64,000 nucleotides of DNA from Candidatus Methanimicrococcus labiotermitis (GCA_009784005.1 WRCE01000003.1:10519-74518); one strand, 5' to 3'; counted from the stretch's first letter, positions 1 through 64,000 are shown. Notes: generated from the sequence alone by a model not told the origin. Numbers and translations are program-made.

Positions 1-322
1 CGCTTTTCGCTGCCTCACGGGCCAGCGTGTTCATGACGGCAAATTTGGATTCGCGGGCGCCGTTCATGACGCGGGCGGCATCCGTTCCCAAAAATTCGGG
101 AAGCGCTTTATACACGAATTCTTCAATCGGCGGTTTTTTAATCAAATCCAAAGCGCCGTTACAGTAATCACAAACGGAATAGCCGTCCCCCCATTCAATC
201 AAAGCGTCTTTGGCGGCCTTTGTCAAAAGACCGGCGGTCTGTAGGGGGTCAATGTTTGTAAAACCGAGCGTGTCGCGTTTGATGTATTGAAACATCAAAA
301 GTCGGTTATTGTTTGAAGACAT
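1..322 (-). CDS. pscS: O-phospho-L-seryl-tRNA:Cys-tRNA synthase (SepCysS), N-terminal part; the gene runs off the left edge
   Basis: My own translation from the ATG at complement(320..322) gives [101 protein letters not shown]... The pattern NxxPLQxxG...[10 protein letters not shown]...PPI...ARVxNGARExKF is what I recall for SepCysS. It is absent from the ORF track because it is truncated. Confidence 0.75.
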
Positions 323-354
323 AAAACGTACCTCATCATTCAAATTGAAAACAT

Positions 355-478
355 AAATGAAAGCGATAAATGAAAACGATTAATGAAAGCGATAATGGAA
401 GCGATAATGGAAGCGATTAATGAAAACAATAAACAAAAACAATAATGAAAGCGATAATGAAAGCGATAATGAAACAAT
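355..478. repeat. Intergenic minisatellite, ~12-bp unit (AATGAAAGCGAT)
   Basis: About 9 degenerate copies read directly between SepCysS and rpo11. Confidence 0.8.
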
Positions 479-540
479 AAAAAACAACAAAGATACTGCC
501 GGCATTAAAAAAATACCGGCGGACCGGAAAATAAAAAAAA

Positions 541-834
541 TTATTTCGGCCGGTCGGCTTTGTTGAAAGCGTTTGAGAATTCATCACATGCCGCCATGAT
601 TTTGGCGGAGATGTCCTTTAAAATCTCAATCGGCTTCTCACCGGGCATTGTTTTGATGTAGAGAACCGGTTCTCTCTCAACGGAGTTGGAGAGTCTTTTC
701 ACGTCATAGAAAGCGGTTTCCACGCGCGGGTCTTCAAGAAGCGTCGCTTTGATGATATTCATAAGAGTGTGGGTTTCCCCTTTAACGAGAATTTCCATCT
801 CGTCTTTGCCTTGCGAAAGAATTGTAATTTCCAT
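541..834 (-). CDS. rpo11: DNA-directed RNA polymerase subunit L (Rpo11)
   Basis: MEITILSQGKDEMEILVKGETHTLMNIIKATLLEDPRVETAFYDVK...PVLYIKT matches the RpoL pattern (ExxxExHTLxNxL...). It is adjacent to csl4, as is usual in archaea. I prefer the ATG at 834 over the GTG at 846. Confidence 0.85.
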   Translation of the reverse strand: MEITILSQGKDEMEILVKGETHTLMNIIKATLLEDPRVETAFYDVKRLSNSVEREPVLYIKTMPGEKPIEILKDISAKIMAACDEFSNAFNKADRPK

Positions 835-929
835 AATTAATCTCACTTAAAACTGAATCAATAAAATCTGTTAATGTGGTTTCTGAAACAAATAATTTCT
901 GATTGATACTTGCAAAAAACGGAAAAGGG

Positions 930-2234
930 TTAAGGCATCGGAGCAATGCCTTTTCCGTATCCGTCAGCCAATTTGCGGCGCTCGCGGCTGCCGCAGTTGC
1001 CGCAAACCAAAACATCGCCGTCTCTTGTCAGTGATGTTTTGCATTTGGAACAATAAGCTTTTAAAACGCCGAGGCTGCTGTCAACAGTGGACAAGCCGAT
1101 TTTGCTGCTGTCAATCACTTTGGCGCGGACAATGTCACCGACGGAGAACTCATCGGCAACGGACTTGGCAAAACCGTCTTTGATGTTGGAAACATAAATT
1201 TCGGCATTGCCCTTGTTAACGATTTCTTCGTCCAAACTTTTTTCCGCCGCGACCAAGTCGACGCGGGCGTTGGATTCGCGAACGTCGGTAATCGAGACAA
1301 TGACAACATCGCCTTCAGTGATGGTGTTTAATGTCTTAGTCTTTGGAATAATTGCAATCATGCGGTGTTCGCTGTTGATGCCGACAACGCCCATAACGGT
1401 TGAGCGGATTGTGCCGTCATCGTTAACGGTCCCAAAACCGGGTTTGTATTCTTCGATTGTGCCGACGGCTTCGCCCGGAAAAACGAAGCGTTTCGTTTTC
1501 TCAAAAACAATTTTTTCGGGGCGCTTCTTCTTCTCGCCGGGTTTGCGGCCGCCTCTGCGGTCTCCGCCGCGGTCTCCGCGGTCGCCTCTGCCGCCGTTTC
1601 TGTCACGGTCGCCTCTGCCGCCGCGGTCGTCTCTGCCGCCGCGGTCGCCTCGGCCGCCGAATTCGCCTCTTCCGCCGCGTTCGCCACGGCCGCCGAATTC
1701 GCTTCTGCCGCTGCGTTCGCCGCCGCGTTCGCCGCTTCGTTCGCCTCTGCTGACGAATTCGCCTCTGCCGCTTTGTTCGTCTCTGACGGGGCGTTCACTT
1801 CTGACGACTTGTTCATCTCTGGCGGGGCGCTCGCTTCTGACAGGGCGTTCATCTCTGACGACTTGTTCGTCTCTGACGGGGCGCTCACTTCTGACGGGAC
1901 GTTCGCCTCTGCCGCTGTCGCCGTTTTGGCTTTCGGCCGGGCGGGCGTTTCCGGCAGGGGGCCTTCTTTCGCCGCGGGGTTCACCGCGGGGTTCGTCGCC
2001 GGCATCCTCTTCCTTATTTTCACTCACGCGGTTGACTCGCTTAACCGGTTTTTTCGCTGCCTCTTCTTTGGGAGCGATTTCGGGTTTGGGACGGCGCGGA
2101 ATTCTTGATTTTTGAGGAGCTTCGGGTACGGTTTCAACCGTTTCGGGCATTTCCTTAATTTCCTTAGGTTCGTCGGTTTTAGATGACACTTCTTTCAGTC
2201 TTCTTCGGATCGGTTTCTTTTGAACTCTGCTCAT
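930..2234 (-). CDS. csl4: Exosome RNA-binding subunit Csl4 with a ~245-aa arginine/glycine/glutamate-rich repetitive N-terminal extension
   Basis: The C-terminal ~185 aa (FVFPGEAVGTIEEYKPGFGT...IVRAKVID...CSKCKTSL...LVCGNCGSRERRKL) correspond to the Csl4 N-domain, S1 domain and zinc ribbon. The N-terminus holds RGG/RGD and RSERPVRDEQVV repeats. There is no internal Met upstream of the Csl4 core. Confidence 0.8.
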   Translation of the reverse strand: MSRVQKKPIRRRLKEVSSKTDEPKEIKEMPETVETVPEAPQKSRIPRRPKPEIAPKEEAAKKPVKRVNRVSENKEEDAGDEPRGEPRGERRPPAGNARPAESQNGDSGRGERPVRSERPVRDEQVVRDERPVRSERPARDEQVVRSERPVRDEQSGRGEFVSRGERSGERGGERSGRSEFGGRGERGGRGEFGGRGDRGGRDDRGGRGDRDRNGGRGDRGDRGGDRRGGRKPGEKKKRPEKIVFEKTKRFVFPGEAVGTIEEYKPGFGTVNDDGTIRSTVMGVVGINSEHRMIAIIPKTKTLNTITEGDVVIVSITDVRESNARVDLVAAEKSLDEEIVNKGNAEIYVSNIKDGFAKSVADEFSVGDIVRAKVIDSSKIGLSTVDSSLGVLKAYCSKCKTSLTRDGDVLVCGNCGSRERRKLADGYGKGIAPMP

Positions 2235-61757: not shown

Positions 61758-61771
61758 CTGCAGCGGCTTAA

Positions 61772-63490
61772 TTATTTTTTGGGAGCGCCGGCGTCTTCTT
61801 CGCGGATTTCAACACGGCGGATTTTGCCGCTGATTGTTTTGGGAAGCTCAGTCACGAATTCGATGTGGCGCGGATATTTGTAAGGCGCCGTGATGTTTTT
61901 GACGTGGTCCTGAAGTTCCTCTTTGAGTTTATCGGAAGCTTTTTCTTTGTAATCCTTCGTCAAAACGATTGTCGCCTTCACCGCTTGACCGCGGACAGGG
62001 TCGGGAACGCCGGTGATTGCGCATTCTAAAACGGCGGGGTGCTGAATCAGCGCGCTTTCGACTTCGAAGGGACCGATTTTGTAGCCTGAACTTTTGATGA
62101 TGTCGTCGGTTCTGCCCACGAACCAGTAGTAACCATCTTCGTCACACCAAGCGGTGTCGCCCGTGTGATAAAATCCGTCATACCAAACATCGTCCGTCTT
62201 TTTCTCGTCGTATTTGTAACAGGAGAAGAAGCCGGGCGGCAGCGCCGAGATGTTTTTGGAACCGGGGCCTTCGGCGACGCGAATAACGATTTCACCCTCT
62301 TCGCCGACGTCGCATTTTTTGCCGTCGGGGCCGAGAATCATGATGTCATAACACGGAACGGGCTTGCCCATTGAGCCGGGTTTTGGTGTCATCCACGGCA
62401 GAGTCGCGATACACACGATTAATTCCGTTTGGCCGTAGCCTTCCATGAGCTGCATGCCGGTGAATGATTTGAATTTTTCAAAGACTTCGGGATTGAGCGG
62501 CTCGCCGGCAACGACGCAGTACTGAAGCGTGCTGAAGTCGTATTGGGATAAGTCTTCTTTGATGAAGAAACGGTAAGTTGTCGGCGGCGCGCAAAATGTC
62601 GTTACGCCGTACCGAGAGATTTTGTTCATCATGTTGCCCGCGTCAAACTTCGCGAAATCGTAAATGAAAACGGCCGCGCCGCAAATCCATTGACCGTAGA
62701 TTTTGCCCCAGACGCATTTCGCCCAGCCGCTGTCCGCCATTGTGTAGTGAAGGCCGTCATCGGTGACGTTTTGCCAATAGGCGGCTGTTAAGATGTGGCC
62801 GAGCGGATAGGTGAAGTTGTGGCAGACCATTTTCGGAAAACCGGTGGTGCCGGATGAGAAGTAATAGAGCATATCATCTGTGTTGATGACCGCTTGGTCG
62901 CCGGTCGGCCGGACAAAGTCGGCGGAGGACGCTTCGAGTTCCGCGACAAAGTCAAGCCAGCCTTCTGCGCCTTTTGAGTTGCCGCCGACATTGAATTTCA
63001 GGAAGTTAGGTTTGTTCAGCTGGCGAAGCGCTTCTTCAAAGCTCAAATCGAGTTCGCCTTCTGAAATGCCGACAACGGCAACCGCGCCCGACTTTTCAAG
63101 GCGGTAAGCGATGTCGCGGACTTTGAGCATATGCGTTGCGGGAACGGCAATCGCGCCGAGTTTGTGAAGCGCGGGAAGACAAACCCAAAACAAGTAATGG
63201 CTTTTCAATGTCAAAATGACGGGGGAGCCTTTTTTGATGCCGTGTTTTTTGAACAGGTTGGCCGCTTTGTCGGTTTGTGTTTTTAATTGTTTGAATGTGT
63301 AAGTTTGTTCGTTGTCAAAGTCATCACACCAAACGAACGCGATTTTATCGGGGTCTTCTTCGGCGTAGCGGTCAATCACATCAAAAGCAAAATTAAAATT
63401 ATCCGGAACATCGATTCGGAAATTGTCTTTAAACTCTTCATAAGATGTAAATTCTGTTTTTGGAACAAAGTGACGGATCAGGTTACTCAT
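61772..63490 (-). CDS. AMP-forming acyl-CoA synthetase (medium-chain/ACSM-like)
   Basis: AMP-binding signature [13 protein letters not shown], plus the GYGQTE and ...TGD...DEDGY.W..GR.DD motifs. Confidence 0.9.
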
Positions 63491-63532
63491 AAATCTCTCT
63501 CGTAAATTCGTAAATGGTATTTCAGGTATAAT

Positions 63533-63640
63533 CGTGAATCATAAAGCGTGAATCATAAAGCGTGAATCATTATAGTGTGAATCATAAAGCGTGAATCATA
63601 AAGCGTGAATCATAAAGCGTGAATCGTGAATCGTAAATCG
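63533..63640. repeat. Intergenic minisatellite, 14-bp unit (GTGAATCATAAAGC), about 7 copies
   Basis: Read directly upstream of the acyl-CoA synthetase gene. Confidence 0.88.
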
Positions 63641-63679
63641 CTGAATTGTATGCTGAATTGTGCGCATTGAATTGACAAA

Positions 63680-64000
63680 TTATAATATGATTGCCAAGAA
63701 CTTGGCCGGCTTGCCGCCCAATGCTTTCATCGCGTGCGGATAGTTGGAATCAAAGTAAATTGAATCGCCCGGATTCAAAATGACTTCGTTGCCGTGGATA
63801 TAAATTTTTAAGCTGCCCTCTAAAATGTAATTGAGTTCCTGGCCCGGGTGGGCGTGAAGTGTCGGTTCTTCTTCTTTGGGCTCGGCCGTTACGATAAACG
63901 GTTCTATTTTTTTGCCGATGAACTTTTCCGCCAATGACTGATATTTGTACTGGCTGCGGCGCTCAACGGTGACGCCTTTCCCGTCGCGTGTGACCGTAAA
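63680..64000 (-). CDS. Cupin-domain protein, probably the C-terminal half of an XRE-cupin regulator; the gene runs off the right edge
   Basis: The frame stays open upstream of the track start (...[27 protein letters not shown]...). Cupin motifs [14 protein letters not shown] and [12 protein letters not shown]. Confidence 0.7.

Follow-up and report, generated by a model that had tools for sequence, protein, structure and literature searches.

The stretch analysed here, called the window throughout, comprises 64 kb of DNA from Candidatus Methanimicrococcus labiotermitis (GCA_009784005.1 WRCE01000003.1:10519-74518; positions 1 to 64,000; GC content 44%). None of its genes ends in TAG, and two of them, encoding a METTL5-family methyltransferase and an NT5C-like deoxyribonucleotidase, carry an in-frame TAG in their interior. 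Taken together, the missing TAG terminators and the internal TAGs very probably reflect pyrrolysine (Pyl) recoding of TAG in a Pyl-using Methanimicrococcus. The observation is confirmed and the phenomenon is already known, since it has been published for the genus as "Genetic Code 34", in which all TAG is Pyl, with proteomic validation in M. burtonii and M. alvi, and in which Methanimicrococcus is named among eight genera with numerous internal TAG genes (Kivenson et al. 2024, 10.1101/2024.09.30.615893). An earlier examination of the window (hereafter the sequence-only reading) had counted no TAG among 48 terminators, noted two internal in-frame TAGs, and proposed that UAG is strongly avoided as a stop, to a degree approaching reassignment, as reported for some Pyl-using methanogens. 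Its account holds up, the likeness to Pyl-using methanogens being supported by the naming of this genus in the Code 34 preprint, and missed two things: the prior publication for the genus, and a dinucleotide bias across the clade that lowers TAG in all frames.

The terminator count was approached with several gene calls. A greedy length-based call of open reading frames (ORFs) of at least 80 aa yielded 36 TAA, 22 TGA and 3 TAG ends, while a codon-usage log-odds model, trained on long ORFs from both the window and Methanimicrococcus loci, picked 47 ORFs, two of them TAG-ended. Four Pfam-supported or long ORFs of low compositional score (three of the four within a low-GC island) were then added and the TAG-split genes merged, giving 49 final candidates supported by codon-usage scoring and Pfam (TAA 28, TGA 21, TAG 0). 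Candidate 15004-15198 is the low-complexity product of translating an intergenic repeat, and candidate 30193-30348 is doubtful; after discounting, 47-48 genes have their 3' end in the window (TAA 28, TGA 19-21, TAG 0), which agrees with the zero of 48 counted previously. Coding signal was also scored for the full set of 52 TAG-ended ORFs with 30 aa or more. Outside other genes, only 2860-3210 and 25963-26139, both on the minus strand, scored clearly positive, and both are N-terminal halves of frames that run on for 107 and 128 more codons, respectively. Neither read-through product, ending at 2536 and 25576 respectively, overlaps a neighbouring gene, and no category 4 case in the scheme of Kivenson et al. 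(TAG read-through overlapping the next gene out of frame by more than 60 nt) was found, a result that applies to the window and not to the genome. Other TAG-ended frames were rejected as true TAG-terminated genes: 10420-10713 and 14453-14719 because of a negative score, repeat or low-complexity content, or loss of the frame in a relative (L009), and 5060-5215, 18879-19085, 33493-33681 and 44805-44933 on the same grounds.

The first gene with an internal TAG, and the codon itself, are located as follows.

2536 to 3192, minus strand: METTL5-family S-adenosylmethionine (SAM)-dependent methyltransferase gene of 218 codons with one internal TAG, identified from Pfam and orthologues.
2860 to 2862, minus strand: in-frame TAG, codon 111 of the METTL5-family gene, from the sequence; predicted pyrrolysine.

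This gene starts at ATG 3192 (MKLRKLE, as in its orthologues) and continues past the TAG to a TGA at 2538-2536, which makes it a category 1 case (internal TAG, more than 30% identity on both sides, extension of more than 15 aa). The TAG falls between SAM motif I (DLGCGTG) before it and catalytic motif IV (NPPFG) after it, and the Pfam matches to MTS, UPF0020 and Cons_hypoth95 each cross it. More than 100 orthologues, several of them named as METTL5 family proteins of Methanimicrococcus, are uninterrupted and 195-234 aa long. The column aligned to the TAG is variable (L, S, C, Q, E, K) and flanked by invariant residues. In the closest orthologue (P0001, 85% identical over its full length) the corresponding codon is TTG, a single substitution away; another orthologue (P0002, 83% identical) has TCA (Ser). 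The latter comes from a second Methanimicrococcus population in the same metagenome sample (L074, ENA ERZ27257304, k141_2401811). Amino-acid identity to these two closest orthologues is 85-86% before the TAG and 81-85% after it, with P0001 at 85-86% on each side and P0002 at 81-85%. Values of dN/dS are 0.13-0.17 after the TAG (at dS of 0.5-0.8) vs. 0.09-0.19 before it, with dS of 0.5-0.9 over both parts. Judged by these substitution rates, the half after the TAG is under purifying selection, and it carries no further lesions. The gene is base-for-base identical in a 48-kb ENA metagenome contig (ERZ27257304 k141_1639260) that is 99.7-99.9% identical to portions of the window, in which gene calling under code 11 split it into 110-aa and 86-aa products.

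The second gene has a similar arrangement.

25576 to 26136, minus strand: NT5C-type HAD 5'(3')-deoxyribonucleotidase-like gene with one internal TAG, identified from Pfam NT5C and alignments to PDB entries.
25963 to 25965, minus strand: in-frame TAG, codon 33 counted from ATG 26061 of the NT5C-like gene, from the sequence; predicted pyrrolysine.

Its start is either ATG 26136 or, likelier, ATG 26061 (MVKGDKKILYIDMDGVL), and its end is the TGA at 25578-25576. The TAG lies in a variable stretch (the cap segment) that separates HAD motif I (DMDGVL) from the remainder of the fold. Residues 7-143, a span that includes the TAG, match Pfam NT5C, and 5'(3')-deoxyribonucleotidases from the PDB align to DMDGVL before it and to the core after it, so that, with similarity on both sides and a 128-codon extension, this gene also falls in category 1. 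It too is identical in the ENA contig, where code-11 calling split it into 57-aa and 105-aa products. Orthologues were absent from the related loci searched except for the near-identical ENA contig (L001), and the gene is therefore regarded as accessory. The two internal TAGs of the sequence-only reading thus stand, at 2862-2860 and 25965-25963, and both are present in the second assembly.

A third internal TAG lies just outside the window, in the gene for a GLUG-motif surface protein with a signal peptide, where it is codon 84 (ENA contig L070:15590-16771). This gene is about 3-4.5 kb beyond the window start in that contig, which is 99.9% identical, and its TAG sits inside PFSGDF-X-GNNYTI; there again, annotation under code 11 splits the gene, into 83-aa and 295-aa products. 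At the codon usage of the window, TAG would be the outcome of only about 30% of single-base nonsense mutations, and the observed interruptions are TAG in three of three cases. Among the other approximately 50 genes, no TAA or TGA interruption and no frameshift was seen.

Related loci extend the terminator count to the clade. Across 14 loci from Methanimicrococcus, Methanolapillus and two neighbouring lineages of metagenome-assembled genomes (MAGs), 213 scored ORFs ended in TAA (118), TGA (90) or TAG (5). In M. hongohii (L004:478-3925), mtbB and mttB stand side by side about 6-9.5 kb upstream of the gene for O-phosphoseryl-tRNA synthetase (SepRS). When the TAG at codon 356 of mtbB is read through, the product matches positions 1-463 of Pfam Dimeth_Pyl, and when the TAG at codon 335 of mttB is read through, it gives a full-length Pfam MTTB match; the window organism has no mtbB or mttB at the corresponding position. 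Of the other three TAG-ended ORFs, one or two resemble read-through genes: the frame in L055 runs on for 218 codons that score positive for coding, the one in L011 is ambiguous, and the one in L006 (12198-12677) has an extension of only 3 codons and could be a true terminator. No TAG stop occurred in a further 28 genes of close relatives. At most two of the approximately 270 clade genes may therefore have true TAG terminators. For comparison, length-based calls gave TAG ends at 7.6% in Methanosarcina, 11% in Methanolobus, 4.6% in Methanococcoides and 18% in two loci lacking the Pyl system (Pyl-minus). This near-absence in related loci, the placement of TAGs inside conserved domains and the Pyl-using genus together support the proposal that avoidance of UAG as a stop is strong and approaches reassignment.

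Composition accounts for part of this rarity. Over all frames, the window holds 275 TAG and 247 CTA trinucleotides vs. 1231 TAA and 1409 TGA, with observed/expected ratios of 0.57 for TpA and 0.70 for ApG, and TAG makes up 5-13% of the stop-type trinucleotides in non-coding sense frames, 6-19% of those on the antisense strand and 8% of those between genes. We compared the window and L002-L014 (Methanimicrococcus, Methanolapillus and RGIG8358/Methanofrustulum, here the intestinal clade) with free-living Methanosarcinaceae of similar GC (L015-L062). Observed/expected CpG is 1.45-1.57 in the intestinal clade vs. 0.65-0.72 in Methanosarcina, Methanolobus and Methanococcoides, with TpA at 0.50-0.57 vs. 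0.71-0.73, ApG/CpT at 0.62-0.80 vs. 1.0-1.1, and the all-frame TAG share at 6-9% vs. 18-21%. The tetranucleotide CTAG is also nearly absent from Methanimicrococcus loci (observed/expected 0.09). Overall, the dinucleotide bias makes TAG 3-5 times rarer, whatever the frame or strand.

These figures could be taken to mean that the standard code applies, with TAG rare through low TpA and ApG combined with sampling, and with the internal TAGs as nonsense mutations in decaying pseudogenes. The depletion of TAG in all frames, on both strands, even between genes and throughout the intestinal clade is what such an explanation expects. However, a TAG share of 6-9% predicts 16-25 TAG stops in the approximately 270 clade genes, against the two at most that were seen (P < 1e-5). 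Pseudogene decay, for its part, is at odds with the constrained and otherwise intact second half of the METTL5-family gene, with interruptions that are all TAG in a gene set free of other lesions, and with the mtbB and mttB of a congener, both of which need UAG read-through. We consider this explanation very unlikely: composition explains neither the absence of TAG terminators nor the constrained read-through genes.

How surprising zero TAG among the 49 candidates is depends on the background chosen. Its probability is 5e-6 at 22% TAG (the median of Pyl-minus archaea, PMC12626013), 0.007 at 9.6% (sister genera with the Pyl system, or Pyl-plus, among the loci compared), 0.008-0.017 at the 8-9.4% that TAG accounts for in the window's own non-coding frames, and 0.08 at 5% (the Pyl-plus median, PMC12626013). 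Set against its own family, the window alone is thus only suggestive, as had been said of the zero of 48 from the outset, and the case is made by the internal TAGs and the clade data. At the clade level, the probability of at most 2 TAG terminators in 271 genes is 1e-4 at the family median of 4.9% and 1e-5 at the composition expectation of 5.8%, with a 95% upper bound of about 2.3%.

The same numbers bear on a further alternative, in which UAG is ambiguous: the Pyl system is present, aRF1 still competes for the codon, a few percent of genes elsewhere in the genome end in TAG, and the zero of the window is a matter of sampling. Precedent exists in M. acetivorans, where one UAG yields both truncated and read-through products and serves as stop and as Pyl codon, and TAG usage ranges from 1 to 27% across Pyl-plus genomes (Shalvarjian et al. 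2025, PNAS, PMC12626013); RF1 is moreover kept in all Pyl archaea examined (10.1101/2024.09.30.615893). The chance of 0.08 at a 5% background, and the L006 frame with its 3-codon extension, would also be in keeping with ambiguity. On the other side stand the clade upper bound, which is below the family median, and the location of a TAG in a housekeeping-type rRNA methyltransferase whose C-terminal half contains the catalytic NPPF, so that efficient read-through would be needed. Ambiguity is a possibility that we take seriously and nevertheless regard as unlikely for this lineage.

Pyrrolysine recoding draws on the identity of the source, for which SepRS is the main marker.

19149 to 20771, minus strand: SepRS gene, identified from Pfam; marker placing the window in Methanimicrococcus.

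SepRS identity is 87-91% to Methanimicrococcus (M. blatticola, M. hongohii, M. stummii, M. hacksteinii and termite-gut MAGs), 78-79% to Methanolapillus, and 62-67% to Methanosarcina, Methanolobus and Methanococcoides. The best METTL5 matches also carry Methanimicrococcus names, and the gene order NrdD, phosphoribosyltransferase (PRTase), diphthamide synthase, METTL5 is common to the window and its Methanimicrococcus relatives. The closest marker proteins and this common order place the window within Methanimicrococcus. Because of the SepRS identities and the near-identical ENA metagenome contig, the source is taken to be an uncultured Methanimicrococcus, of a species distinct from those described. 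The clade consists of arthropod-gut, obligately methyl-reducing, H2-dependent Methanosarcinaceae; pylB, pylC, pylD and pylS are annotated for its isolates (supplement), and the pathway is stated to be present in almost all genomes (Protasov et al. 2024, PMC11362671). We infer that the window organism itself carries pyl genes and that the residue inserted at its internal TAGs is pyrrolysine. The reassignment is probably complete rather than near-complete, two states that the window is unable to separate.

Under the mechanism proposed, the Methanimicrococcus lineage would possess tRNA-Pyl (anticodon CUA), PylS and PylBCD, and its Pyl-tRNA would read UAG anywhere, with no special signal in the mRNA. 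Selection would have replaced TAG terminators by TAA or TGA because a TAG-ended gene would be extended by read-through. Now and then a single-base change, such as that from TTG to TAG in the METTL5-family gene, would create a sense TAG at a tolerant position, where it would stay as a lineage-specific pyrrolysine singleton. The low TpA, low ApG/CpT and high CpG would also lower TAG in every frame, leaving few TAG terminators to purge. Consistent with signal-free decoding, the 100 nt after each window TAG hold no fold resembling a pyrrolysine insertion sequence (PYLIS) that is better than those of shuffled sequences (z = -0.13 for METTL5, +0.92 for the NT5C-like gene); in this they differ from PYLIS-dependent recoding of the mtmB type, in which a stable stem-loop lies 3' of the UAG. 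In the Code 34 archaea, PYLIS is dispensable and Pyl outside the methyltransferases occurs mostly as lineage-specific singletons (10.1101/2024.09.30.615893).

A suppressor tRNA other than tRNA-Pyl might instead insert a canonical amino acid, as in TAG-to-Gln codes, and the window does speak for read-through alone, not for which residue goes in. Yet no residue is enriched at the TAG columns, which are mixed in METTL5 and fall within the variable cap segment in NT5C, and the GLUG-motif site has no residue common with the others. The same comparison yielded no single predominant residue aligned to the TAG sites, a weak test with 3 sites only. The genus, furthermore, carries Pyl genes and Pyl-dependent methyltransferases, and the abstract of the Code 34 preprint states that Archaea had no established alternative genetic code until then (10.1101/2024.09.30.615893). 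A canonical residue at these positions is accordingly the most improbable of the explanations weighed here.

Several points weigh against pyrrolysine recoding. Neither pylT, pylS and pylBCD, nor a methylamine methyltransferase gene (mtmB, mtbB, mttB), nor aRF1 lies in the 64-kb window, and an ARAGORN and Rfam scan of the window found no tRNA and no Rfam RNA, hence no tRNA-Pyl there. When M. mazei PylS served as a tblastn query for the window and loci L001-L069, no PylS was found, the only match, a weak one, being in a Methanoregula locus (L061). In a database search with the same protein, the best 120 matches were all Methanosarcina-like, with no link to the window organism. Composition alone predicts a low TAG share, of 5-13% by frame, and a genome-wide TAG-terminator rate as high as about 6%, the 95% upper bound from the window alone, would still accommodate the zero of 48. 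The dN/dS comparison is compatible with a very recent nonsense mutation. Finally, by analogy with the ambiguous UAG of M. acetivorans, to speak of complete reassignment may overstate the case.

Comparison with known systems places the window at one end of a range. In Methanosarcina loci about 8% of ORFs still end in TAG, and the TAG share over all frames is 21%, vs. 0% and 9% in the window. A parallel for the METTL5-family gene is the tRNA-His guanylyltransferase (Thg1) of M. acetivorans, cited by Kivenson et al. as their reference 39, in which Heinemann and colleagues reportedly described a Pyl in 2009 and took it as neutral evolution. There too, one Pyl occupies a non-conserved site in a housekeeping enzyme that modifies RNA; a single substitution separates its codon from a sense codon, and orthologues lack it, whereas the window protein is of the METTL5 family, from another genus, and predicted from sequence. 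Low-TAG Methanomassiliicoccales, for which PMC9723798 cites Borrel et al. 2014, are a further comparison. They are reported to use TAG for about 1.6% of stops; they resemble the source of the window as host-associated, H2-dependent methyl-reducing organisms with a Pyl system and very low TAG stop usage, and belong to an unrelated order (Thermoplasmatota). M. acetivorans itself is, likewise, a Pyl-plus member of the Methanosarcinaceae with reduced TAG usage and internal TAGs in non-methyltransferase genes (PMC12626013). The closest resemblance is to the Code 34 archaea, with which the window has in common the absence of TAG as terminator, TAG singletons in conserved non-methyltransferase genes, no need of PYLIS, a methyl-reducing or methylotrophic methanogen as source, and a genus named there. 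It differs in representing an uncultured species, known here from its sequence alone, whose pyl genes would lie outside the window. The window thus fits the Code 34 picture, at the low extreme of the range of TAG usage reported in PMC12626013.

The remaining gene content is archaeal and typical of methanogens according to Pfam, including, besides SepRS, diphthamide synthase, Taw1, Trm5, anaerobic ribonucleotide reductase, PurP and a 2-oxoacid:ferredoxin oxidoreductase. A pair of adjoining genes provides context for a methyl-reducing methanogen.

46353 to 47366, minus strand: URO-D family, MtaA/MtbA-type methylcobamide:coenzyme M methyltransferase-like gene, identified from Pfam; without an internal TAG.
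45066 to 46241, adjoining the URO-D family gene: CobW GTPase gene, identified from Pfam.

On the 3' side, no record was found with the exact AMP-binding protein of the window. At 930-2234 on the minus strand, a 434-aa ORF contains an exosome Rrp4/ECR1 N-terminal domain that begins only at residue 250, the first approximately 245 residues having no family match. The gene call in the public contig is equally long, and either the N-terminal extension of this ORF is unusually long or its start has been set wrongly.

Two classes of repeats occur in the window. Members of an intergenic family of about 450-500 bp, 86-96% identical and without a match in Rfam, lie at 10638-11597 (two copies in tandem, 10.6-11.6 kb), 14576-15217 (one in direct orientation, 14.6-15.2 kb) and 38253-39008 (two in inverted orientation, 38.25-39.0 kb). 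In the near-identical ENA contig, window sequence at ~38.7 kb is joined, in backward reading, to that at ~11.09 kb, and the segment of about 27 kb between inverted copies is therefore flipped between the two assemblies, through either recombination or assembly ambiguity. Dense tandem repeats occupy intergenic regions and gene edges at 33500-34900, 12620-13060 and 44860-45060; similar ones in L070 were mis-called as a TAG-ended 112-aa gene by public annotation.

A low-GC island (49800-58600, GC 0.33-0.40) is probably a horizontally acquired restriction-modification or defence island, and contains two DNA methyltransferase genes.

50081 to 51334, plus strand: Type II C5-cytosine DNA methyltransferase gene in the low-GC island.
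57317 to 58531, minus strand: Type II C5-cytosine DNA methyltransferase gene in the low-GC island.

The island also contains a gene for an 885-aa protein, in which two GHKL ATPase domains are recognised, as well as three ORFs without a family match, and six of its six genes end in TAA or TGA. Elsewhere, a GMT-wHTH and DUF5131 gene pair at 16643-18525 corresponds to the PADLOC candidate defence system PDC-M30 (A 2e-23, B 4e-114) and is also present in the near-identical ENA contig (L001).

For the genus, the practical consequence is that gene callers using code 11 split the METTL5-family and NT5C-like genes, as in the public ENA contig, and annotation of Methanimicrococcus MAGs should treat TAG as a sense codon. 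Two predicted Pyl-containing proteins, and a third just outside the window, are added in an uncultured species, and the window provides one more low-TAG data point for the debate between Code 34 and ambiguous UAG. In the arthropod-gut clade, mutation or composition, and not selection against read-through alone, may largely account for the loss of TAG terminators, a conjecture that we hold tentatively and would not favour on present evidence. If true, it would describe a "codon capture" route to Code 34, with TAG nearly gone for compositional reasons and then free for tRNA-Pyl, and would explain why a host-associated clade lies at the extreme low end of TAG usage. The clade-wide dinucleotide shift would then be a small, testable addition to the understanding of how code changes begin.

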